Virus record (IMG/VR): IMGVR_UViG_3300011871_000042 | Source of the DNA: an uncultured virus (IMG/VR IMGVR_UViG_3300011871_000042) | Taxonomy: Duplodnaviria > Heunggongvirae > Uroviricota > Caudoviricetes | Length of the DNA: 20,000 bases | Strand: one strand, 5' to 3' | Part shown: positions 2,740 to 19,904 of the stretch, piece after piece | How positions within the stretch are numbered: the first letter of the stretch is position 1 | How the letters are laid out: the number at the start of each line of letters is the position of its first letter | Made by a program: the position numbers and the translations under genes | Notes under the pieces: generated by a model | Seen by the model: the letters and a program-made list of their open reading frames with translations, nothing else | Told to the model about the DNA's origin: nothing | Databases searched by the model: none

Positions 2740-3774
2740 ATGTATAAAGATTTTTTAGAAAAATTAGAAGATGAAGAAAATTTAAAAGATCGAGAGCTAT
2801 GGATTGAATTAGCTTATATCAATAATCCCTTAGTTGAGAAGAAAATAACTCAAAAAGGATATAGTTTTCTTAGTCCTATATTAAAGAAGTCTGATAATTT
2901 AGAAGAAGTAATTACCCCACTTCTTCTTTTGTGCTATGATAAAGAAATACCTAATAAAAATGAAATCCTTTCCAGATGGCTTGCTGAAACATTAATACAA
3001 GAAAAATTCACTAAAAGTAAAAATACAATAAATTATAGAAATCATCAACAAGAAAAGTTATTTATGTTTTTTATTGAACAAAATAATATAGATATGATAG
3101 AAAAAATAATTTATTGGAGTAAGGAAATGCCTTATCCTCATAAAGTTATAAGTTATGAAGATGTAAAAAAATATATATTTAAAAATCTTTCAATAGAAGG
3201 ATTAAAAAATTTTAGTTCTTCATGGAGTGACAATGTTTGGCTAACTAAATGGAAATTTGAAAAAAATTTATGGGATTACGAGCCTCATGACTTTGAGGCC
3301 AATCCTGAAAGTTTCTGGCCTATAGAAAGGCAATCATTTAATTTAGATTGGATGAAGGCCGTGTTAGAAGCAGGTTGTCCAACAAACATGTTAATGCAAG
3401 GTTTTTTTGATGAAAAAGAAATAGAAACAATAATGTTAAGAATATTAAAGCTTTCTTTTTATTTCCATAATCATGAATATCATAATAAAAATAACGAAAA
3501 TATAAAAAAGTTATGGATACGTGATGAAAAATATTTAATGAAAATGTTAAGCTTATTTGTTAGTCATGGAGGAAAAATAGAAGGCAATTGGAATGGTATC
3601 GCTTGGTGGGAAGAATGGAGAAATTTAAGGAAAAATATAAAGGATTGGACTAGTTGGAATGAACAAACATTATCATACATTGATAGTTTTGCTCAACAAC
3701 ATGAAATTAATAAAAAAATGAGTATAAGTATGGCTCATAAAAAAGTAGAAAAAAATCTTAAAGAAAGAATATAA
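2740..3774 (+). CDS. Hypothetical protein (Trp-rich)
   Basis: 344-aa ORF starting 6 nt after the previous stop, so probably co-transcribed. No family recognised. Confidence 0.75.
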   Translation: MYKDFLEKLEDEENLKDRELWIELAYINNPLVEKKITQKGYSFLSPILKKSDNLEEVITPLLLLCYDKEIPNKNEILSRWLAETLIQEKFTKSKNTINYRNHQQEKLFMFFIEQNNIDMIEKIIYWSKEMPYPHKVISYEDVKKYIFKNLSIEGLKNFSSSWSDNVWLTKWKFEKNLWDYEPHDFEANPESFWPIERQSFNLDWMKAVLEAGCPTNMLMQGFFDEKEIETIMLRILKLSFYFHNHEYHNKNNENIKKLWIRDEKYLMKMLSLFVSHGGKIEGNWNGIAWWEEWRNLRKNIKDWTSWNEQTLSYIDSFAQQHEINKKMSISMAHKKVEKNLKERI

Positions 3775-3781
3775 AAAATGC

Positions 3782-3811
3782 TTGACTTGAATGTTGATTT
3801 TCGTATATGAT
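3782..3811 (+). promoter_or_regulatory. sigma70-type promoter for the leader / Pth2-like operon
   Basis: TTGACT (3782-3787), 18-nt spacer, TATGAT (3806-3811). Confidence 0.6.
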
Positions 3812-3867
3812 GGTTTCGTTGAGCAAATCAACATACTTTAAACAATAAAACAAATAGGAAAATAAAT

Positions 3868-3969
3868 ATGAAACACTAGACTTTAAATGTAAGAGCACCT
3901 CCACCTTGGATTATTAATTTATTCATGCAGTTCTATTATATAAAATTTAATAATCAATCAAAAAGGTGA
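3868..3969 (+). promoter_or_regulatory. Putative leader peptide / translational attenuator MKH*TLNVRAPPPWIINLFMQFYYIKFNNQSKR* (in-frame TAG at codon 4, RAPP arrest-like motif)
   Basis: AGGA RBS at 3856-3859, ATG 3868, TAG 3877-3879, AGA GCA CCT CCA CCT (RAPPP) 3892-3906, TGA 3967-3969. Predicted pairing of CACCTT 3902-3907 with AAGGTG 3963-3968 (downstream SD) and of GATTATTAA 3909-3917 with TTAATAATC 3947-3955. Confidence 0.65.
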
Positions 3970-3974
3970 AAATT

Positions 3975-4412
3975 ATGACTACTTTAAATATCGAAAACAA
4001 ATCTTTTATTCTTTCTAAAGAAAAAGCATTAGAAGCTAAATCTATCTGGAAAGATCTATCAAAAAATAAAAAAGCAACATTATCTCATCATGTATTTTAT
4101 TTCTTATTAATATCACATGATCCAGAATTAGTGTTTAAAAAAGCTTTTTCTCCATTAGTAAATTCCAATAAAATTCAAAATGTTGGTGGTGATGTCTACT
4201 TTGCTGTCAAACAAGAATTAGGAAGTTTATCTTCTAAAAATTTAGAATTTAAATATATTGAGCCTTGGATTTCCATCTTATTGAATGAAGATGAATATAA
4301 AATAAAAGGTCATTGGTCTAAAATTGTTGAAACAGAATCTGAGCTTATTAATGATATTCGTAAAAAAGCTCAACTTGTTTTGGATTTTTTTAATGGTAAA
4401 AAAGAGGTTTAA
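3975..4412 (+). CDS. Hypothetical protein, first gene of an operon with the Pth2-like hydrolase
   Basis: The ORF track starts at GTG 3966, but ATG 3975 follows the SD AAGGTG (3963-3968) at 6 nt and is the more likely start. Motif-like segments HHVFYFLL and AFSPLVNSNKIQN. Ends 3 nt before the next ATG. Confidence 0.75.
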   Translation: MTTLNIENKSFILSKEKALEAKSIWKDLSKNKKATLSHHVFYFLLISHDPELVFKKAFSPLVNSNKIQNVGGDVYFAVKQELGSLSSKNLEFKYIEPWISILLNEDEYKIKGHWSKIVETESELINDIRKKAQLVLDFFNGKKEV

Positions 4413-4415
4413 TAA

Positions 4416-4790
4416 ATGTATTTAAAATATGATGGCAAGGCTCCTTTTGAAAAAGATGAAGCTAAATATGTATATGTATTAATCAGAACGGATTTATCAT
4501 TAGCTCAGCAAGGCGTACAGGCTGTTCATGCTGGTATGGCTGCTATACATGAATTTGGTGGTTTAACGGATGATACTCGTTTAGCAATGCTTTCTGTTAA
4601 TAGTGAAAAGGAACTTGAACTTTGGGCAGAAAGACTTGAAATGAATGGAATTAACTTTAAAATATTTTGGGAGCCTGATAATAATACTGGATGGTCAGCA
4701 TTAGCAACAGCACCAATTAGTAGACAAGAAGGGAAAGTGTTAAAAAAGTTAATGAGATGGAATCCTGAAAGAGATCTGATGGCAGCATAG
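4416..4790 (+). CDS. Peptidyl-tRNA hydrolase II (Pth2/PTRHD1)-like protein
   Basis: Pth2-fold pattern: YVYVLIRTDL...AQQGVQAVHA, LSVNSEKEL, GINFKIFWEPD...SALATAP...LKKL. GAGG RBS upstream. Ends LMAA-TAG-TAA. Confidence 0.8.
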   Translation: MYLKYDGKAPFEKDEAKYVYVLIRTDLSLAQQGVQAVHAGMAAIHEFGGLTDDTRLAMLSVNSEKELELWAERLEMNGINFKIFWEPDNNTGWSALATAPISRQEGKVLKKLMRWNPERDLMAA

Positions 4791-4799
4791 TAAAAATAT

Positions 4800-4830
4800 A
4801 ATAAAAAGGAAGCGCAGCTTCCTTTTTATT
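4800..4830. terminator. Bidirectional intrinsic terminator
   Basis: AATAAAAAGGAAGC-GCA-GCTTCCTTTTTATT between convergent genes. Confidence 0.9.
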
Positions 4831-5077
4831 TGATTAATGAAAGTTTTGGTTTTTTATAATAAGGTTTATCTAGCATAGGTTTCTCAAATCTTTCTAATTG
4901 AGGAAAAGTTTTCTCTAATGCTTCATATCTACTACTTGCTAATACATCTTTTGTTTTTATTCCTACTTTATTAAGATTGATCAATAAATTTAATGTAACA
5001 TCATTACTTTCGATAGAAATAAAATCATTAAGTTCTGTATCAAACCATACTTTATATAAAACTTGATTATCTTTCAT
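4826..5077 (-). CDS. Small hypothetical protein with an SspB-like C-terminal tail (KKPKLSLIK)
   Basis: 83-aa ORF with an AGGAAGGA RBS upstream on the minus strand; its stop lies within the terminator. Confidence 0.7.
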   Translation of the reverse strand: MKDNQVLYKVWFDTELNDFISIESNDVTLNLLINLNKVGIKTKDVLASSRYEALEKTFPQLERFEKPMLDKPYYKKPKLSLIK

Positions 5078-5200
5078 TTATCCTTCCTATTGATATTTTA
5101 ATACTATGTCTATATCATACATATAATATATAAAAAAACAAAAAAAATAGTGAAAGTAAGTACGAAAGTGTGATATAAAAGAAACAACAGAGGAGACACT

Positions 5201-6343
5201 ATGGAAAAAAGTACAAAAAGTTCTTGGCAAGAAGTTGTCTTTAAAACAAAAGAATGGCATAAAACATTAATTCAATTTGAATTAACAGATGAGTTAAGCC
5301 AACCACTAACAGCTTATAATCCTATTTTATGTGAAAAGGAATGGGATGCTATCCAAGCAATAAAAAAATGGAGAAATGAATCTGGTTTACATTTTTCTTT
5401 ACAAGATTTTGATGATAATGAAAGAATTTCATTTGAAAAATTAACAGAGAAAAGTAAAAACGTTTATTTTAAAAAGAATGATGCCAAACCATATAAAAAA
5501 GTATTTTATGTTCCTTTTGCTGTTTGGAATGATGATGTTGATGCTGCTCCAGATTTTATTCCATTAAAAGATAAGACAATAATAAGACAATATGCTAGTA
5601 GTTTATATAATAGTTTAAAAATAAGAGCTTTAAATTCCATGAATACTTTTTTTAATGGGGTTAAAGTAGGAACTGAATATGGATTTGAAACAGGAAGTTT
5701 GTGGTTAAAATCAAATATAGATAAATTATTACAAGATGGCATAGACCTATCTGAAATGGAATTAACAGATATAGATGAAAATTTAATTCATAGTCTTAGT
5801 GGGGTAACGAAAGAATTTCAGGAAGAATGGCTACAATCGGCATTAATACCAATAGTAATAGCTGCAACTGAATATGAAGATATTTCAGATTTTGATTTTA
5901 ATTATGATGGTCAGTTAGATGTTGAAATGAAAAGCTTAAAAACCATGAGAGCTGATTTTGAACAACCCATGAGTTTGAATAAAGCTTTAAAAAGATTGGA
6001 AGCTCTGAAATTTTCTTTATGGGCAAAAAGCGTAGTTTATGATAATTTCGTAGAAGGAGGAGTAAAAAGAGAAAGCGTTATCCAATTTCATATAAATAAT
6101 GGTGATGTGGTATACGTAAGTGTGGCTGTAATGGATATAGATAAAAATGATGAAGAATTGATTACTCTTACATATGGAAGAAGAATTAATGATCATTATG
6201 AAATACAAGAAACATTATTACCTTGGGTAATGTGTGCTGATCCTAGAATGACTTGGAGTGTTATGTATACCGAAGATGACTTTGAAGAAGATAATTTACC
6301 CAATAACTATAAAATTACTTATGAGAACACTACCATACATTAA
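5201..6343 (+). CDS. Hypothetical acidic protein
   Basis: 380-aa ORF with a strong GAGGAG RBS, followed by a terminator; ends TTIH. No family recognised. Confidence 0.8.
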   Translation: MEKSTKSSWQEVVFKTKEWHKTLIQFELTDELSQPLTAYNPILCEKEWDAIQAIKKWRNESGLHFSLQDFDDNERISFEKLTEKSKNVYFKKNDAKPYKKVFYVPFAVWNDDVDAAPDFIPLKDKTIIRQYASSLYNSLKIRALNSMNTFFNGVKVGTEYGFETGSLWLKSNIDKLLQDGIDLSEMELTDIDENLIHSLSGVTKEFQEEWLQSALIPIVIAATEYEDISDFDFNYDGQLDVEMKSLKTMRADFEQPMSLNKALKRLEALKFSLWAKSVVYDNFVEGGVKRESVIQFHINNGDVVYVSVAVMDIDKNDEELITLTYGRRINDHYEIQETLLPWVMCADPRMTWSVMYTEDDFEEDNLPNNYKITYENTTIH

Positions 6344-6344
6344 T

Positions 6345-6370
6345 AAAAAAAGGCCATCTGGCCTTTTTTT
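6345..6370. terminator. Bidirectional intrinsic terminator
   Basis: AAAAAAAGGCC-ATCT-GGCCTTTTTTT between convergent genes. Confidence 0.9.
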
Positions 6371-7053
6371 TATTTGGTAAGATTACTTCTGAAGCAAACT
6401 AAAGCATCTGGTTTAAGTTGGAAAAGTTCAGCAGGACGGTGTTTACCTGTTAAAACTTCACCTGTTTCTTCAAGAAAATCTAATTCATTTATTTTCTTTC
6501 TAAAAGCAGATTTATCAATTGGTGTACCTAAAACTTGCTCATAAACCTTTTGCAATTGTGTTTTAGTAAACTTTTTAGGCAACAAATAAACAGGAAGCGT
6601 AGAGTAGTTTACTTTATTTCTTAATCTTTCTAGTGCCATTTCAATAATGTTTTCATGATCGAAAGCAAGGCTGCCTTTTTTAATTTCATCAACAGCTTTC
6701 CACTCAATACCTGTAACGTTGCGCCCTGCCTGAGCATTTTCTACTTCTTCCCACGGCATTAAAGATACATAAGCAATACTAATAGACCAACCACGAGAAT
6801 CACGCTTAACAGAACCAAAAGTATGTAGTTGTTCAAAATAAGATGATTGAACACCTGTTTTTTGGAATAAAACTCTATTTACAGAATCATCTAAAGTTTC
6901 ATCTTGATCGGTAAAAATAAAACCACCGGGCAAGCCTAATTTACCTGCATAAGGTTCTTTCTCTCTCTCAACAAGTAAAACATGTAGTTTTTCATTTTTT
7001 AATGTCAGGATAACAGCATCAACTGAAGCAATAGGTGTATCATATTCTTTCAT
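6370..7053 (-). CDS. nrtR: NrtR-family transcriptional regulator (Nudix-like domain + winged HTH)
   Basis: SVDAVIL...LHVLLVER..EPY.G..GLPGGF, a degenerate Nudix box (DETLDDSVNRVLFQKTGV), FEQLHTFG...RDSRGWSISIAY, LAFDH, and a C-terminal wHTH FTKTQLQKVYEQVLG...KSAFRKKI...HRPAELF. AGGAG RBS. Confidence 0.92.
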   Translation of the reverse strand: MKEYDTPIASVDAVILTLKNEKLHVLLVEREKEPYAGKLGLPGGFIFTDQDETLDDSVNRVLFQKTGVQSSYFEQLHTFGSVKRDSRGWSISIAYVSLMPWEEVENAQAGRNVTGIEWKAVDEIKKGSLAFDHENIIEMALERLRNKVNYSTLPVYLLPKKFTKTQLQKVYEQVLGTPIDKSAFRKKINELDFLEETGEVLTGKHRPAELFQLKPDALVCFRSNLTK

Positions 7054-7110: not shown

Positions 7111-7228
7111 TATATTTATTCTTATTATTGTTTTTTAACATTATTATATAAAATTCAGTAAGTTAGAGTAATATTTTGAATTTTATTTTTTTTGTATTAC
7201 TATGTACAAATTACCAGTGGAGGTCAAC

Positions 7229-7543
7229 ATGAAAAATGATACTATAGATTCAACAGTGATAGAAAAAAAGTCCGACACAAGGATTCAAAAACCTTCAATG
7301 TATAATGTTATATATTTAAATGATGACTATACTACTATGGAATTTGTAATCTGGACTTTAATGAAATTTTTTAATAAAAATGAAGATCAAGCTGTCTTGA
7401 TAACTCAAAGCATTCATAAGGAAGGTAGAGGCGTTGCGGGATTATATTCAAAAGAAATTGCTGAAACAAAAATATATGAAGTACAAAATATAGCTAGGCT
7501 TAATGATTTTCCTTTAGTTTTAATAATGGAAAAAAGCGAGTAA
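7229..7543 (+). CDS. clpS: ATP-dependent Clp protease adaptor ClpS
   Basis: PSMYNVIYLNDDYTTMEFV...IHKEGRGVAGLYSKEIAETK...FPL. GGAGGT RBS precedes ATG 7229, preferred over the ORF-track start 7202. Confidence 0.93.
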   Translation: MKNDTIDSTVIEKKSDTRIQKPSMYNVIYLNDDYTTMEFVIWTLMKFFNKNEDQAVLITQSIHKEGRGVAGLYSKEIAETKIYEVQNIARLNDFPLVLIMEKSE

Positions 7544-8299: not shown

Positions 8300-9511
8300 A
8301 TGCCATTAGCTTCTTACGCTATTACTGATGAAAACAGTAAAGGTCGCCAATACCCAATAAAAAAAGCTCAAGATAGAGATGAATTTGAGCGAGATTTTGA
8401 TCGTATACTTCATTCTGGAGCGCATAGAAAACTCAGAGCTAAAACACAAGTTTTCCCTCATGATGCTGCAGGAGATATTTATCGTAGTAGATATGATCAT
8501 TCTATGGAAGTTTGCCAGATTGCAAAATCAATAGCCAAGGATCTTGGTTTAAATCAGCATTTAGCAGCAACATTAGCTATTTGTCATGATATCGGACATG
8601 CACCTTTTGGACATTTAGGCCAAGATACACTCGATGAATTAATGAAAGATCATGGAGGATTTGAACATAATATTCAAGCATTACGTATAGTAGATAAATT
8701 AGAAAGCCCTTATTTCCCTGAACATGAAGGTCTGAATTTAATGTTTGAAACTCGTGCTGGATTATTAAAACATTGTTCAACACAAAATGCAGTTTTACTT
8801 GGAGAAATAGCTGAAAGACATTTAATTGGAGAGCAGGGTTCTCTCGAATCTCAAGTGGTTGATAAATCTGATGCAATAGCTTATGTTCACGCTGATTTAG
8901 AGGATGCTTTTGTTCTTGATCTTTTAAAACCAACAGATTTATTTGAAGCTCCGGGATATATGTTGGCTTGGGAAAGAGTGAAAAAAGAACACCCTAATTT
9001 TGAGTTGCCATCAAATGATAATTATTTAAATGGCTCAAGAGATGAAATTAGAGCAACAAAAGGTATTGTAAGAACAATAATACGCGATATGTTCTCTTAT
9101 TCTTTAAATAATATAAAGACTAATACAGCAATGAGAATTAGAGATTCAGGAATAATCACTCCAGATGATGCTAAATCTTATAAAGAAGAGTTAGTGCAGT
9201 TTACCGATAATCAATATAAGCTTCATAAAGAATTGAAGAAATTCTCTAGAATCCATATTTATGAACATCCAACGATTGACTCTAATCGTCAGGTTCAGAA
9301 GCAAATGGTAATTGACCTATTTAATGCTTATAGTAAAGATCCGAAAGAAATGTCAGGAATAGGAGTAGATCCTAAAGAAGACTTTTATCGTTCTTTAGCA
9401 GATCATATTTCAGGCATGACTGATAGATTTGCTGTAATGGAACATAAAAGAATTTTGGAAGAACGTCCAGAATTAATAGCAAGAAATCAAAGAAGAATGA
9501 AACATTTTTAA
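8300..9511 (+). CDS. dgt: dGTP triphosphohydrolase (HD-domain dNTPase)
   Basis: RDEFERDFDRILHS..RKLRAKTQVF, RSRYDHSMEV, CHDIGHAPFGH, GGFEHNIQALRIVDKLE, DAIAY..ADLED, ADHISGMTDRFA. Confidence 0.93.
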   Translation: MPLASYAITDENSKGRQYPIKKAQDRDEFERDFDRILHSGAHRKLRAKTQVFPHDAAGDIYRSRYDHSMEVCQIAKSIAKDLGLNQHLAATLAICHDIGHAPFGHLGQDTLDELMKDHGGFEHNIQALRIVDKLESPYFPEHEGLNLMFETRAGLLKHCSTQNAVLLGEIAERHLIGEQGSLESQVVDKSDAIAYVHADLEDAFVLDLLKPTDLFEAPGYMLAWERVKKEHPNFELPSNDNYLNGSRDEIRATKGIVRTIIRDMFSYSLNNIKTNTAMRIRDSGIITPDDAKSYKEELVQFTDNQYKLHKELKKFSRIHIYEHPTIDSNRQVQKQMVIDLFNAYSKDPKEMSGIGVDPKEDFYRSLADHISGMTDRFAVMEHKRILEERPELIARNQRRMKHF

Positions 9512-11432: not shown

Positions 11433-12059
11433 ATGAATTTTATTGAAGATATTAAAATATTAGAAAAAGAAAAAAATATAAATATAGTTTATGGTCTTGC
11501 CGGAGATCCACCACATTTTGGTCACCTTCAAGCTATTAAATATTTATTAAGTATAACAACAGCTAAAGTATGGATTATCTTATCTTCTTCTCATGCATTT
11601 GGAAAAAAGATGGCTCCTTATAAAAAGAGGAAAGAATGGTTAACCTCCTTAGTATTAGGTGAGAATAGCATATTAACAGAAGATGAGAAAAAAAGAGTTG
11701 TTTTAGATGATATAGAGGAAGCTATTATATTAAAAAATAATGTAAACGTTGTTTACTCTATTGATCTGATGAACTATTTTAAATCTTACTATAGTGGTAA
11801 TAATTTTTATTGGGCTTTCGGCAAAGATAATGCTAATGAAAGTAGCATGAAAAAGTTTAAAGATTATGAAAAATTATGCGAATGGCCTGTTATAGTACTG
11901 CCTGAATTCATGGAAGTTAGATCAACATTAGTAAGAAATGCTTTGAAAGAAAAGAATATTTCTTTTTTAAATGAAAAAATAGGTTATGAATTAACCAATC
12001 TTGTTAACGATTGGATTTCTGAAAAAGAAGGGGCGGAATGGTTATTAAATCGCATATAA
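11433..12059 (+). CDS. nadD: Nicotinate/nicotinamide mononucleotide adenylyltransferase (NadD-like)
   Basis: HxGH nucleotidyltransferase motif in GLAGDPPHFGH, plus SHAFGKKM, FGKDN and C-terminal VRSTLVRNAL; NrtR-type operator upstream. Confidence 0.82.
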   Translation: MNFIEDIKILEKEKNINIVYGLAGDPPHFGHLQAIKYLLSITTAKVWIILSSSHAFGKKMAPYKKRKEWLTSLVLGENSILTEDEKKRVVLDDIEEAIILKNNVNVVYSIDLMNYFKSYYSGNNFYWAFGKDNANESSMKKFKDYEKLCEWPVIVLPEFMEVRSTLVRNALKEKNISFLNEKIGYELTNLVNDWISEKEGAEWLLNRI

Positions 12060-12076
12060 ATAGTGATATTATTTAA

Positions 12077-14240
<2,164 letters not shown>

Positions 14241-14242
14241 TT

Positions 14243-14270
14243 AATAAAAGGGGCCTATGCCCCTTTTATT
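14243..14270. terminator. Bidirectional intrinsic terminator
   Basis: AATAAAAGGGGC-CTAT-GCCCCTTTTATT between ligA and the convergent gene, overlapping that gene's last codons. Confidence 0.88.
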
Positions 14271-14707
14271 TTTACTTTAGATGATGTTTTATATTCTTCG
14301 AGATATTGTTCTGAAAAGGCTTGTTCCAATCTTTTTAATAGTGTAGGAAACATAACAGAACCATCATTTTTCCTAATTGTAGAATCTTTTATTAAATAGT
14401 TTTCATTTGTTAAACTAGATATTACGTTCCCTTTAATTTCAAAGGTTTCTACATTATTTTGAGAGCATATTTGTTTTGTCGTAAACAAAATACTTTGAAG
14501 GTACATTAATGTTTTTATCTTTTGTTCTTCATTAGAAGAAAGGTTAACTTTAAAAACCTTTTTAGGATTACCTTCTTTAGAAGGTTCTTTTCCATCAAGC
14601 TTAAACATCATAGAATATAAAGTATTTAGGCAATCTTCTTTTGCTTTAGTGCTTGCTGATTTAGCTTCTATTTCTATAGTAAAAATAGTTTGTAATTGTT
14701 GTTTCAT
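14255..14707 (-). CDS. Hypothetical protein
   Basis: 150-aa ORF with an AGGT RBS; ends KVKIKGA-TAG. Confidence 0.7.
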   Translation of the reverse strand: MKQQLQTIFTIEIEAKSASTKAKEDCLNTLYSMMFKLDGKEPSKEGNPKKVFKVNLSSNEEQKIKTLMYLQSILFTTKQICSQNNVETFEIKGNVISSLTNENYLIKDSTIRKNDGSVMFPTLLKRLEQAFSEQYLEEYKTSSKVKIKGA

Positions 14708-15807: not shown

Positions 15808-17934
15808 TTGGAAACAAATAGAACTGAATATGTCTTTCCTAAAGAGCAGCTTTTAATTAAAGATAAAATGCGTAAGAACCAATCTTATAAATTTGAAGAT
15901 TTTGTTTCTTTAATTAATGAAGAATACCCTAAAGCTCGTGGATCAGATATCGTAAAGTGGGTTAAAAACCTTGAGTTAGATGGAAATATTTTGCGTTTAG
16001 TAAATGAGGATGGAATATCATTTAGAACAACTCAATATTTGGAGGAAGTAGTAGGTAAAGTAGAATGGCAAGCTAGAGGTCATGCTATACTTTATTTACA
16101 GGATGAATCTGGTGAGAAAACAGGCGAAACGCTTTATTTAAATAGAAAAGAAGCCGCTCTTGTTGTTAATGGAGAAGTAGTAAAAGCCAAAAGGATTCCT
16201 AAAGAGTGGAGAGGCGTTACAACAGGTGGCGATGATGAAGGTTTAATAGTAGACGTTATATCAACCAAGCCTTATTTAACAGTAGCTCAAAATGTAGGTG
16301 GTGGAAGAAAGGATTGGTTAAGTGCTGTTAAGTTAATGGAACCAATGATGAAAGATGTTGTTCGCTTATCAGAAAAGCATCAAGAAACACTATCTAAAGA
16401 AGAAGTAGAAAAAGTTCAAGAGGAAGGTTCTTTTATTTCAGGTTACTTAAGAAGAACAGGTAAGTTTGAGCGCTGGTGTGGATTAAGAGCGTTTTTTGAT
16501 GTAGAAAGTTATGTTGGAAAAATTGATGAGCCGGGAATTGAAACTAAACTAGGTTTAGCTTGGATGAATGCTAAGGAAGGATTTACTGCTAATAGTATGA
16601 TGGAAGCAGAGATGTCTTCAAGTATCTCAATCAATGAAATATTAAAAGATAAAGGAAGAAAAGATTTAAGAAATATACCATTTGTTACAATTGATGGCGA
16701 ATCTACAAAAGATTTTGATGATGCTATAGCAACCATTGATAATAAAGATGGAACATTTACTATGTATGTAGCTATTGCGGATGTCAGTAGATATGTCTTA
16801 CCTGATGGAGCTTTAGATAAGGAAGCTAAAGAAAAATCCACAACTTTATATATGCCTCATAAAGCTGTTCCAATGCTTCCAGAAATATTATCAAATGGTG
16901 TATGTTCATTAAATCCGGGACAAGAAAACGCTGTAATGGTATGTGAAGCCCTCATTAATAAAGATGGTCTTGTGGGAATGTCTCAATTTTATCCTGCGGT
17001 AATAAGTTCTCATGCTCGTTTAACTTATAATGAAGTTGATGCTTATATTCATAGAGAATCTTTAGATTTGCCTAATTTAGCACCATTGGTTGAACCATCA
17101 TCAGGTTTGGAAAAACTCAAGCTTTGGGATAAAGAAACTGAATCTACGGTGATTAATAGCTTAAATGTTGCTAATATTTTAAGAGGTTATTCTCTTTCTA
17201 AGCCATTCGATAGAGAGCCAGAAGTTGAACCTGTTTTAAATAAAAAAGGTAAAGTTGATCACTTGAGAATCGTTTTAGATGCTACGCCTTCTAATAAATT
17301 AGTTGAAGAATTTATGTTATTTGCTAATAAAGAAGCTGCAAGAATGTTATCTTTATCTGGAAATCGTTCTGTTTTATATAGGAATCAAAAAGCACCAGAA
17401 GATGAATTATCACGTCCTCGTTCTGCTAAATATGAAAATGTAAATACAGGACACTATAGTTTAGGTCATGATAGCTATATGCACTTTACGTCTCCAATCA
17501 GACGTTATCCAGATTTAATGGCTCATAGAGCAATTAAAAATGCATTAGGTTATACAAATTATAATTTACCAAAAGATGAAGAAGTCGATATTATTGGTAA
17601 GTATTGTAATGAAAAACAAAGATTAGCAAAAGGTGCTAGTGATAAGGCTAATCAATGGTTGATCCTTCAGTATGCTGAACAATTCAAGCGTGAGATAGAA
17701 GATGTAAAAATTATTAGAGAGTCCAATAATGGTTGGTTTGTTCAGGGTGAAAAAACGAATATACAAGCCTTTGTATTAAAACCTAAGCATGAATCAGAAG
17801 TCGCTAAAGTGCTTGAAGCTGGTATAAAAGTTGAAGTTGAAAGAGTTGATTTACATGCTGAAAAAATCTTTTTAAGACTAAAAGATCCAGAGCCAGTATA
17901 TGAAGAAAAAGAATCAATAAAAGTTAAAATGTAA
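15808..17934 (+). CDS. rnr: RNase R / RNase II (RNB-domain) 3'-5' exoribonuclease
   Basis: DLRNIPFVTIDGESTKDFDDA (catalytic Asp cluster), VAIADVS, LSNGVCSLNP, LVEEFMLFAN, GHYSLG...YMHFTSPIRRYPDL. TTG start with a GGAG RBS. The N-terminal region is divergent. Confidence 0.88.
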   Translation: METNRTEYVFPKEQLLIKDKMRKNQSYKFEDFVSLINEEYPKARGSDIVKWVKNLELDGNILRLVNEDGISFRTTQYLEEVVGKVEWQARGHAILYLQDESGEKTGETLYLNRKEAALVVNGEVVKAKRIPKEWRGVTTGGDDEGLIVDVISTKPYLTVAQNVGGGRKDWLSAVKLMEPMMKDVVRLSEKHQETLSKEEVEKVQEEGSFISGYLRRTGKFERWCGLRAFFDVESYVGKIDEPGIETKLGLAWMNAKEGFTANSMMEAEMSSSISINEILKDKGRKDLRNIPFVTIDGESTKDFDDAIATIDNKDGTFTMYVAIADVSRYVLPDGALDKEAKEKSTTLYMPHKAVPMLPEILSNGVCSLNPGQENAVMVCEALINKDGLVGMSQFYPAVISSHARLTYNEVDAYIHRESLDLPNLAPLVEPSSGLEKLKLWDKETESTVINSLNVANILRGYSLSKPFDREPEVEPVLNKKGKVDHLRIVLDATPSNKLVEEFMLFANKEAARMLSLSGNRSVLYRNQKAPEDELSRPRSAKYENVNTGHYSLGHDSYMHFTSPIRRYPDLMAHRAIKNALGYTNYNLPKDEEVDIIGKYCNEKQRLAKGASDKANQWLILQYAEQFKREIEDVKIIRESNNGWFVQGEKTNIQAFVLKPKHESEVAKVLEAGIKVEVERVDLHAEKIFLRLKDPEPVYEEKESIKVKM

Positions 17935-17969: not shown

Positions 17970-19517
17970 TTATTTCATTTTCATGGTATCTCTAACAGCT
18001 TCATTAACGGTTATTGCTTGTTGATTAATAAGTCTTTTCAGTTTATCAGATAATGACATTTTACCAGTAGATTGTTTAGGTGTATTTTTTTCTATTTCTA
18101 ATTGTCTTTCAGGTAATGGAAAAGATTCCGATTTTTCTTTTTTACTTTCGTATAAACCTTGTTTATTCAGTTCTTCAATAATATCTTTATTATCATAGAC
18201 TATTTTTTCTTCTCCTACTTTTTCTTTTGCTGCATTTAATTGTTTTTCTATTTTATCTAGAATCTGTTTTTGGCGTTCATATCTAGCGGTTTGTTTTGCA
18301 GATAGCTTTTTACCACTTGCTTTTTGCTCTTCATAAGTATCAACAGCTAAATGGGTAGTCTTAAATACTTTTTCCATTTCTCTAATTTTATATGTTTCTG
18401 GAATAGCAGATTTTAATGCCGCTAAGTTATTAGTTTGATTATATGTATCAAAAGTTCCAGCAGTTAAATATTCTTTACCTTGTTTCCCTGCTGTTAAAAA
18501 TGTTATAGCATTAATCAACCTTTGATTTTTATAATATACACCATCTTTATCTGTATGGCCTGTAGTAAAACTTTCAATAGCTGCTAAATAATCTCCGCGC
18601 TTATAGTTTTTTGTAAAATCTTTACCTAAAACGCGACCGCCATTATTATATGAAGCATATGCTGCACCTGCCATTTCTTCTACTGTCATATTATAAGCTG
18701 TAGTATACTTAGTCCCCACTTTTTTGCTAATTTCAGGATCGGAATAGTCAGACATTTTAAATCCCGGAACATCTACCGTAACAAGCGTAGTAGCATCATC
18801 TAATCCCCATAACTTTGGTCCAGCCCAAGTTTTAGCAATCTTAATATAGTCATCTTGTATTAAAGAGAATAGTGCTAATGATTTTTTAAAGTCTGTTTTG
18901 ATAGTTTTTGATTTACCCATAGCGTAGTTCATTACATCATCTACAGGATATCCAGCTTTGACAATAGTTTTATACATTTCAAGCTCAGAGCCAAAAGATT
19001 TTTTTTGTTGAACTAAATCGAAACCAGCCCCTAACGTAGGATTACCATTAACTTTAACTAAATCATGAGAGTCTTCAACAATAATCCCTATTCCCATCAT
19101 GTTATATCTTATTTTATCTTCTTTTGATAATGCTTTTTCAGATGCAGCAAAAAGCTGTTTAGCAACAGTAAATCTATTAGCATTCTCTTCGTCTATTTGA
19201 ATAGGTACACCACTTTGATCTACTTTTACTTTATTAAGTTCCGCTCTCATATTAGCAAAATACGTTGCTTTATTTTGTTTAAGCGTTTTATTTTTACTAA
19301 CATGTTTTTTTACTTGAGTTTGGTTTGTAGCTTTGTTATGATGTCCCGTATCAGCAAGAGATGGAAGGGTTGTCATAGCAAAAGCAGTTGTTAATAATAA
19401 TCCAACAACTTTACTTAAAGCTCTATTTTTAGCAGGTTTATCTCCTATAACATACGTTGTAGCATTTTCAGAAGATAGGCTATTTGCTACATCATTAANN
19501 NNNNNNNNTAATATCAT
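17970..19517 (-). CDS. Putative exported lysozyme-fold (GH24/pesticin-like) protein; start uncertain because of an N-gap
   Basis: Signal-like segment KVVGLLLTTAFAMTTLPSLA; VED...NGNPTLGAGFDL (compare E...GxxTIGxGxdL) and AYASYNNG...F...YKRGDYLAAI (compare xxFNxG...F......gd...A); long charged C-terminal extension. Confidence 0.55.
   Translation of the reverse strand: MILXXXXNDVANSLSSENATTYVIGDKPAKNRALSKVVGLLLTTAFAMTTLPSLADTGHHNKATNQTQVKKHVSKNKTLKQNKATYFANMRAELNKVKVDQSGVPIQIDEENANRFTVAKQLFAASEKALSKEDKIRYNMMGIGIIVEDSHDLVKVNGNPTLGAGFDLVQQKKSFGSELEMYKTIVKAGYPVDDVMNYAMGKSKTIKTDFKKSLALFSLIQDDYIKIAKTWAGPKLWGLDDATTLVTVDVPGFKMSDYSDPEISKKVGTKYTTAYNMTVEEMAGAAYASYNNGGRVLGKDFTKNYKRGDYLAAIESFTTGHTDKDGVYYKNQRLINAITFLTAGKQGKEYLTAGTFDTYNQTNNLAALKSAIPETYKIREMEKVFKTTHLAVDTYEEQKASGKKLSAKQTARYERQKQILDKIEKQLNAAKEKVGEEKIVYDNKDIIEELNKQGLYESKKEKSESFPLPERQLEIEKNTPKQSTGKMSLSDKLKRLINQQAITVNEAVRDTMKMK
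19499..19508. other. Assembly gap (10 N)
   Basis: N run near the 5' end of the minus-strand gene 17970..19517. Confidence 0.95.
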
Positions 19518-19538: not shown

Positions 19539-19904
19539 TTAAGACATGCCCATTTTATTACTACGCTTTGGTTGATTATTAATATTGTTAACTTGATAAG
19601 CATATTCAATAGGGTTCCCATTTTTAAATCTATTTAATCCTGCAACAATGATTTGATCATATTGTTGAAGAGTGTTATATATTTCTTTATTAAAAGACAA
19701 AGGTTCTGTTATAAGTGAAATATTAGAATCATCACTTTTGACTTTAATAGAAAGACTATTTTCATTATAAGTCACATCCAATGGCTCCCATGTTAATGAT
19801 GAGCCAAAATCATTGATATCAAAAGATAAAATGATTATGGGATTATTCTCACTATTTTTTGTTTCTGTAATTTCATAATTTTTTAAAATATGTTCTTGAT
19901 TCAT
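19539..19904 (-). CDS. Hypothetical protein
   Basis: 121-aa ORF with an AGGA RBS; ends QPKRSNKMGMS. Confidence 0.7.
   Translation of the reverse strand: MNQEHILKNYEITETKNSENNPIIILSFDINDFGSSLTWEPLDVTYNENSLSIKVKSDDSNISLITEPLSFNKEIYNTLQQYDQIIVAGLNRFKNGNPIEYAYQVNNINNQPKRSNKMGMS

Follow-up and report, generated by a model that had tools for sequence, protein, structure and literature searches.

A short leader upstream of two small genes in the window, the 20,000-nt stretch of uncultured-virus DNA analysed here, is read with better than even confidence as a translational attenuator gated by stop-codon readthrough, in which the stop would be decoded, probably by the element's own suppressor tRNA, and the ribosome would then pause at an RAPP motif; the operon is probably made only while the stop-reading tRNA acts. 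The Shine-Dalgarno sequence (SD) of the first gene (ORF_A), which is seen in the sequence, would be hidden by a predicted and conserved hairpin. Ribosomes starting at ATG 3868 are predicted to terminate as a rule at codon 4, a UAG that lies too far 5′ of the hairpin to affect it, and hence ORF_A, and ORF_B coupled behind it, would stay low. On decoding of the UAG, for which a CUA suppressor tRNA encoded by the replicon itself is the likeliest agent, the ribosome would proceed to RAPP(P) and, judging from the stalling described for RAPP and poly-Pro sequences, pause with Pro 11 in the P site, where it would cover both anti-SD registers and half of the inner helix and hold the SD open. Ribosomes that escape RAPP would end on the ORF_A start and may add coupling. 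Through the switch, synthesis of a protein with a peptidyl-tRNA hydrolase 2 (Pth2) fold and of its partner would depend on an active stop-reading tRNA, and the purpose of the switch could, speculatively, be to clear or limit the peptidyl- or aminoacyl-tRNA burden of suppression. The features are listed in Table 1.

Table 1. Features of the leader and operon in the window, with their coordinates.
Feature	Coordinates	Strand	Basis or remark
Sigma-70-type promoter TTGACT-18-TATGAT	3782..3811	+	10/12 match
Small 5′ stem-loop near predicted transcript start	3818..3832	+	Pair probabilities 0.98-1.00
Leader SD AGGA, 8 nt 5′ of ATG 3868	3856..3859	+	Sequence
Leader minigene Met-Lys-His-TAG (gate)	3868..3879	+	TAG at 3877-3879
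In-frame readthrough extension TLNVRAPPPW...KR	3880..3969	+	TGA 3967-3969 inside ORF_A SD
RAPP arrest-like motif, codons 9-12, third Pro next	3892..3903	+	Kept via synonymous changes
Anti-SD arm in Ala/Pro codons, two predicted registers	3896..3907	+	CACCT 3896-3900 major, CACCTT 3902-3907 minor
Predicted inner helix 3909-3917:3947-3955 plus 3918-3922:3940-3944	3909..3955	+	Pair probabilities
Occluded SD AAGGTG of ORF_A, 6 nt 5′ of ATG 3975	3963..3968	+	Mean unpaired probability 0.17 in the free RNA
ORF_A, 145 aa, no named family	3975..4412	+	No Pfam or PHROG match; 9 close homologues
ORF_B, 124 aa, Pth2 fold	4416..4790	+	Starts 3 nt past ORF_A stop
14-bp terminator-like hairpin between ORF_B and convergent gene	4800..4830	.	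Scored on minus strand

The leader is translated from ATG 3868 as MKH*TLNVRAPPPW...KR*. Its RAPP is the sole R[AG]PP in the six frames of the window, and the same is true of the leader RAPP in each of the orthologous loci L013, L014, and L016 (20 kb each); the RAPPP of the window would presumably also act as a poly-Pro pause. The leader is an upstream ORF with its own ribosome-binding site, co-oriented with ORF_A at 3975; its frame is interrupted, the stop being codon 4, and the mere eight codons that precede RAPP leave no N-terminal segment for sensing or localisation. Promoter-like sites are weak by themselves (12 in the window against 11.2 in shuffles); the TTGACT occupies an identical position in L013, L014, and L016, and AAGGA precedes the leader ATG in these three loci. 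One of the contigs from RNA runs starts at 3813 and others span the promoter, and these contigs give no start, strand, or level. An out-of-frame start-stop, ATG-TAA, lies within the leader at 3887-3892, is shared by L013 and L014, and is missing in L016. In Rfam, the leader had no match across 3600-5300 at E up to 5, and five sub-threshold matches fell elsewhere.

Evidence on RNA structure is computed throughout. The three pairings put forward in the earlier note are present in the sequence at the positions given there, namely CACCTT (3902-3907) with AAGGTG (3963-3968), the 9-bp pairing of GATTATTAA (3909-3917) with TTAATAATC (3947-3955), and TTTAT (3918-3922) with ATAAA (3940-3944). Within the inner helix, pair probabilities are 0.77-1.00 for the 9-bp part and 0.53-0.72 for the 5-bp part. 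The SD register requires an amendment: the one at 3902-3906 exists in the ensemble (p ~0.17), whereas the ensemble prefers 3896-3900, in the Ala-Pro codons (p ~0.82); the register at 3902-3907 is the one that matches the orthologues L013 and L014. As expected of an attenuator, the predicted default fold leaves the SD largely paired, its unpaired probability being 0.17 in the window and 0.00 in the three orthologues. On folding of 3815-3990 the hairpin forms with ordinary stability (z -0.26; 72/200 shuffles as stable), and the ensemble energy lies within the shuffle range in both the window (57/300) and L016 (65/300). The cost of opening the SD, 6.6 kcal/mol, is matched by 12/300 shuffles that keep the RAPP codons and the SD and by 23/300 in which all sequence 5′ of the SD is randomised, and the occlusion of the ORF_A ribosome-binding site ranks 2/17 in the window. 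Occlusion of the window SD modestly exceeds chance, and the predicted window hairpin by itself is suggestive, not decisive. The earlier note had also taken the hairpin as independent support for the leader model, a view that does not hold because the CCN Pro codons are themselves anti-SD sequence, and a null that keeps them gives 3.8 kcal/mol. The real support for the candidate hairpin is its conservation, not independence from the motif.

Conservation was assessed among loci returned by a metagenome scan with an ORF_B alignment (52 loci). L012 is a copy of the window across the stretch compared and is not independent; L013 and L014 represent one lineage (contigs of 454 and 866 kb), and L016 lies on a contig of 172 kb, with the gene order as in the window. 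A promoter, a stop-interrupted leader, RAPP, and an SD-hiding hairpin (predicted) are common to the three diverged orthologous loci. The leader of L013 and L014 reads MKH-TAG-TLNVRAPP, with the same gate codons as the window; a predicted helix of 9 bp joins CACCTTTAA to TTAAAGGTG there, and the inner helix has 11 bp, whose basal nine pairs show one two-sided change (U-A to A-U) and one one-sided change (A-U to G-U). The leader of L016 reads ML-TAA-IAKITLNCRAPP, with a Met-Leu-TAA gate; its SD has changed to GGAG and its arm to CTCC at the first Pro codon wobble, where the window, L013, and L014 have CACC:GGTG, and its Arg-Ala codons are CGA GCG as against AGA GCA, so that the peptide is kept and the codons are changed. 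The TAA of this gate is the main stop of its element (12/17 gene ends), and its suppression would be costly there, which counts against the model. Compensatory pairs were tabulated by coordinates because the automatic alignment was out of register for L016: MAFFT/RNAalifold misregistered its SD helix, and the resulting consensus reached just -1.95 kcal/mol, 3/18 pairs being changed on both sides. A covariation statistic is not meaningful here, as the exact hairpin occurs in three independent lineages only. Under the two types of null, the SD opening cost was matched in 9/300 and 0/300 shuffles for L013 and in 6/300 and 17/300 for L016; the occlusion of the ORF_A SD ranks 2/20 in L013, 5/20 in L014, and 1/16 in L016 among ORFs. 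A search of viral contigs with the leader pattern gave no match.

The predicted response of the hairpin to ribosomes was obtained from a footprint scan, in which a ribosome was placed codon by codon, covering 15 nt beyond the first P-site base, and the RNA 3′ of it was folded; a footprint of 12-15 nt past the P site is given in the part of PMC8012679 that was available. The check named in the earlier note, in which 3885-3918 is forced single-stranded, lowers the cost of SD opening from 5.75 kcal/mol in the free RNA to 1.85 kcal/mol. Its expectation that a ribosome terminating at the TAG would leave the hairpin alone and that one at RAPP would free the SD is borne out in the computed scan: with a ribosome at the leader start or stopped at the TAG, the SD stays closed (codons 1-5, 6.2-6.8 kcal/mol), the cost is ~5 kcal/mol at codons 6-7, and a ribosome at RAPP, from codon 8 onward, frees the SD (1.8-2.7 kcal/mol). 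Between a terminating ribosome and one at the first Pro codon, the cost falls from 6.2 to 2.7 kcal/mol in the window, from 8.3 to 2.8 in L013, from 7.6 to 2.4 in L014, and from 7.1 to 1.8 in L016. The threshold of opening lies at codon 8 in the window, 7 in L013, 7 in L014, and 10 in L016, where RAPP sits three codons further down; it tracks RAPP, not the stop. The predicted stall position covers the anti-SD arm and the default position does not, with a margin of several codons on either side between the closed and the open positions.

The leader TAG is a real stop, since the element uses the standard code. Amber recoding (code 15) was considered and rejected, the coding share under codes 11 and 15 being 0.89 and 0.90 in the window, 0.86 and 0.86 in L013, 0.81 and 0.82 in L014, and 0.83 and 0.85 in L016. 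Gene ends in the window comprise 16 TAA, 2 TAG, and 1 TGA. ORF_B itself ends in TAG TAA at 4788-4793, as does its orthologue in L014, and the L013 orthologue ends in TAG CAA TAA, an arrangement that fits amber leakiness; a backup stop behind other TAG-ending genes was looked for and is generally absent. In L012, a T run follows the stem of the terminator-like hairpin on the plus strand too.

ORF_B is, from its predicted structure, a Pth2-fold protein with putative hydrolase activity. Its model has a pLDDT of 86, and archaeal Pth2 and human Bit1 rank first in Foldseek (prob 1.00, E 2e-5 to 9e-4); by sequence, ORF_B itself has no Pfam PTH2 match, no plasmid match, and no PDB match, and its homologue in Xoo-sp13 matches Pfam PTH2 above the cut-off. 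ORF_B shares 14-25% identity with Pth2 and has Gln where the aligned Pth2 proteins have Lys before the QxxHA motif, a Lys with a catalytic role in Pth2. ORF_A is weakly related to a 108-aa protein of Mimasvirus and Eneladusvirus (tblastn E 3e-3 to 0.1, via the L016 orthologue), which has an amber-gated leader of its own, and its top Foldseek match in BFVD is likewise weak (a 108-aa protein of Yersinia phage fHe-Yen9-04; prob 0.75, E 0.55). Direct searches with ORF_A gave no phage match, no ESM Atlas match, and no solved fold above Z 4.9, which is not informative on novelty. Among viral contigs, one relative was confirmed with alignment A2 and none with ORF_A, ORF_B, or alignments A1 and A5. 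None of the genes of the window was recognised as phage structural, and homologues sit on contigs of up to 866 kb. A TrfA-like plasmid initiator is encoded at L016:39-791 (Pfam score 22.6 bits against a cut-off of 22), at a distance of ~8.6 kb from the orthologous leader, which suggests that these 170-870 kb elements are perhaps plasmid-like. For the window, a phage and a very large plasmid-like element are equally plausible.

Linkage between Pth2-like genes, early stops, and stop-reading tRNAs was found among relatives in 55 loci (L011-L065) from the contig scans, near-duplicates and two weak matches included. A stop-anticodon tRNA is present in 33 of these loci, and 35 of the 49 tRNA calls read stops. 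An early in-frame stop occurs in 20 of the 55 (16 TAG, 4 TGA), and stop and anticodon match in all 12 loci that have both, including a TGA/UCA pair in L024. If a Pth2-like gene is free of such a stop, the preceding gene is often stop-interrupted, or a leader is present, of the type ML*IKLHPP*, MT*IRGP*, or MTPKPFS-TAA-IRGPP, the last together with a UUA tRNA. L047 combines a TAA-gated RGPP leader with a UUA tRNA; all three stop codons are used as gates among the loci. Within the 20-kb window and within 10 kb of ORF_B in L012, L013, L014, and L016, no stop-reading tRNA was detected by a scan that spans these 20-kb loci, a result that counts against the tRNA input. Gly-Phe followed by Thr, Val, Ala, or Arg recurs just before the stop of the Pth2-like gene, TAG or TGA (L018, L023, L024, L027-L030, L032, L034, L038, and L060), and may tune readthrough.

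Comparable arrangements are found in phages. ORF_B matches 35 phage records, and in nine of the ten examined an ATG, one or two codons, and an in-frame TAG start the Pth2-like gene or its HD-like fusion. In XbC2, BF, CBB, and Yen9-03 the Pth2-like gene is interrupted by an amber codon, and each phage has one CUA tRNA and an amber-gated TGPP leader (M(M)L-TAG-xxSTGPP) whose Gly-Pro codons pair with the SD region; the leaders of these cultured phages carry TGPP, lacking the Arg of RAPP, which counts against the model. These leaders belong to weak homologues of ORF_A, which were examined in these four of 18 matching records and have weak fold support. In the CBB-like phages, ~4 kb separate the CUA tRNA from the Pth2-like gene and ~18 kb separate it from the gated leader, so that tRNA distance alone does not exclude a suppressor elsewhere in the element of the window. 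RaK2, a single case, has a Pth2-like gene with no early stop, and none of its nine tRNAs reads a stop. RsoM2USA is reported, in the portion of the source available, to carry a CUA tRNA. XacN1 has two CUA tRNAs whose target genes were described as not identifiable in the accessible part of PMC5852040; its Pth2-like ORF364 is preceded by an in-frame SD-ATG-AAG-TAG. In the records, the amber-interrupted Pth2-like gene is missed or truncated (L001:1486-1851, L003:943-1803, L006, and L008): RsoM2USA has no feature there, XbC2 and CBB have late starts, and ORF364 of XacN1 starts 21 nt past the gated ATG. In L002:964-1806, L003:964-1803, and L007, the Pth2-like domain follows an HD-like domain in a fused gene that opens with the amber gate. 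L010:1471-2656 carries tandem gates, an MK-stop at the Pth2-like gene and then MK*IKITIRGPT, with a CUA tRNA ~700 nt downstream.

A footprint test of 12 further stop-plus-Pro leaders was performed; they were hand-picked, L054 was left out as a copy of L053, and eight are metagenome leaders whose downstream genes are not established ORF_A homologues. Ten are predicted to open on stalling, nine of them by at least 2.3 kcal/mol, and L044 and L066 show no predicted SD switch. In seven of the 12 leaders the frame closes with PP-stop or GP-stop, leaving 48-79 nt to the next ATG, a distance at which coupling cannot act; six of these seven show predicted SD opening, and the arrangement speaks for a stall over coupling within the family. 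With confidence only slightly above even, the leader may be viewed as one form of a wider module of jumbo-phage and plasmid-like elements, in which a stop-reading tRNA is combined with a Pth2-fold gene and its partners behind the matching stop, the lock being either direct (codon 3-8) or imposed via a stalling leader and an SD-hiding hairpin; such a module would serve as a feedback sensor of suppressor-tRNA activity in UAG, UGA, and UAA versions and would represent the missing suppressor target in standard-code jumbo phages.

The need for a stall has to be weighed against the reading frame behind RAPP, which is open to -8 in the window, +8 in L013, +8 in L014, and +1 in L016 relative to the ORF_A ATG, the leader and ORF_A of L016 meeting in an ATGA overlap; stop-free extensions arise by chance in 12% of shuffles for the window, 4% for L013, and 8% for L016. 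As the frame is open to the ORF_A start in these four loci, coupling may add to or replace the stall. It is unlikely, though deserving of attention, that readthrough is coupled to ORF_A with no meaningful stall at all, the ribosome unwinding the hairpin and reinitiating or letting a new ribosome load, and the Pro codons acting mainly as anti-SD. Such coupling would agree with the leader frames of CBB, XbC2, and Yen9-03, which run in frame into the downstream gene, with the opening of the SD by any ribosome beyond codon 8, and with the short peptide chain ahead of RAPP, whereas it does not account for the Arg and Ala kept in L016 despite changed codons, as anti-SD pairing needs neither, or for the related leaders that end far from the next start. 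The same switch could also take weak termination as its input, through release-factor shortage or inhibition or near-cognate readthrough, comparable to the internal stop of prfB. We consider this quite improbable: a Pth-like protein would be useful if termination fails, TAG, TGA, and TAA all serve as gates, and no suppressor tRNA lies near the operon in the 20-kb loci, but the agreement of gate and anticodon (12/12, plus L047), the predominance of stop-reading tRNAs among those adjoining (35/49), and RaK2, the one case with neither gate nor stop-reading tRNA, argue for a dedicated tRNA.

Two further readings dispense with readthrough. The leader could be a chance product or a vestige, an AT-rich spacer whose anti-SD spells RAPP by accident and does no more than damp ORF_A constitutively, which would be in keeping with the z-score of -0.26 and the ensemble energies within the range of shuffles in the window and L016. 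This is very unlikely, as the SD, the ATG, the early stop, the in-frame RAPP, and the hairpin are kept among elements whose ORF_A proteins are ~30% identical, and as the leader RAPP is the lone R[AG]PP of each 20-kb locus. Alternatively, ribosomes ending at the TAG might restart at the out-of-frame ATG-TAA, where a footprint gives an SD opening cost of 2.3-2.9 kcal/mol in the window, L013, and L014; this is scarcely credible, since the start-stop has no SD, is a by-product of the Asn-Val-Arg codons, is missing in L016, and leaves the in-frame RAPP unexplained.

Among known systems, the readthrough-gated attenuator is closest in its output to secM-secA and ermCL-ermC, in which a ribosome stalled on the leader takes an anti-SD arm out of pairing, so that the downstream SD becomes free. 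The earlier note had equated the logic of the leader with these two; the output fits, as the SD would be freed by a leader ribosome, whereas the input would be passage through a stop ahead of the motif and not a modulated arrest, that is, stop readthrough in place of secretion status or macrolide binding (SecM is named in the available part of PMC12856214). According to the accessible portion of PMC12992588, RAPP/RGPP arrest peptides comprise ApdA, ApdP, ApcA, CruR, and S. lividans uORFs, together with SecM with RAGP; the arrested ribosome has Pro3 in its P site and Pro4 in its A site, the Arg is called irreplaceable, and the motif alone is insufficient for arrest. As in these peptides, the leader of the window places RAPP in an upstream ORF, with a predicted stall at Pro codons and a co-directional downstream gene; the known peptides, as far as that portion describes them, are much longer, and in most of them the arrest is modulated by a signal or membrane segment or by a metal site. 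By contrast, an 11-residue chain with no sensor domain lies behind an in-frame stop in the window, and the signal would be access to the motif. The early stop recalls prfB, where a translation-related protein depends on failed termination (PMC12421855, seen in part); prfB uses a frameshift within one ORF, whereas decoding in the window would involve no shift of frame, a separate leader carries the stop, and a codon-matched suppressor tRNA is suggested by the relatives. Suppressor tRNAs have also been proposed to gate expression in phage stop recoding (code 15, late-gene control; bioRxiv 10.1101/2021.08.26.457843, in the part available), unlike which the window has the standard code and a single regulatory stop at the 5′ end. 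ORF_B shares its fold with Pth2 hydrolases, including those of jumbo phages (PMC7824862, in part); the jumbo-phage Pth2 passages of that article do not mention gating or a link to suppressor tRNAs, and the words PTH2, suppressor, and phage are all absent from the text of PMC6514570. No description of a stop-gated stalling leader or of a suppressor tRNA-Pth2 link was found in a search of full-text literature that judged papers mostly from titles and abstract openings and covered few subscription papers. The finding names candidate targets and a mechanism for the suppressor tRNAs of standard-code jumbo phages, which are without known targets, and gated genes of this kind get missed or truncated in annotation. 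If true, the readthrough-gated attenuator would extend RAPP arrest to an 11-residue chain and make stop-codon decoding a new input to leader attenuation, and the leader would offer a compact natural readout of amber suppression.

Outside the operon, the window encodes an NrtR-like NUDIX regulator, ClpS, an HD dGTPase-like protein, a NadD-like nucleotidyltransferase, a protein that we take by its sequence to be NAD-dependent-ligase-like, and an RNB ribonuclease (in this order 6370-7053, 7202-7543, 8300-9511, 11433-12059, 12104-14152, and 15808-17934). The order of the set from NUDIX to RNB is largely kept in L014 and partly in L016. Runs of N near 14120-14135 and near 19500 interrupt the ligase C-terminus and the start of a 515-aa ORF. 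Basic protein tails are frequent in the window, L013, L014, and L016 (...KTLKLK, ...SIKVKM, ...DTMKMK, ...RPRMKM, and ...SKKRL), the window ORFs concerned being 105-746, 2740-3774, 8300-9511, 14255-14707, 15808-17934, 17970-19517, and 19539-19904; we take these tails to resemble C-terminal type IV secretion signals.
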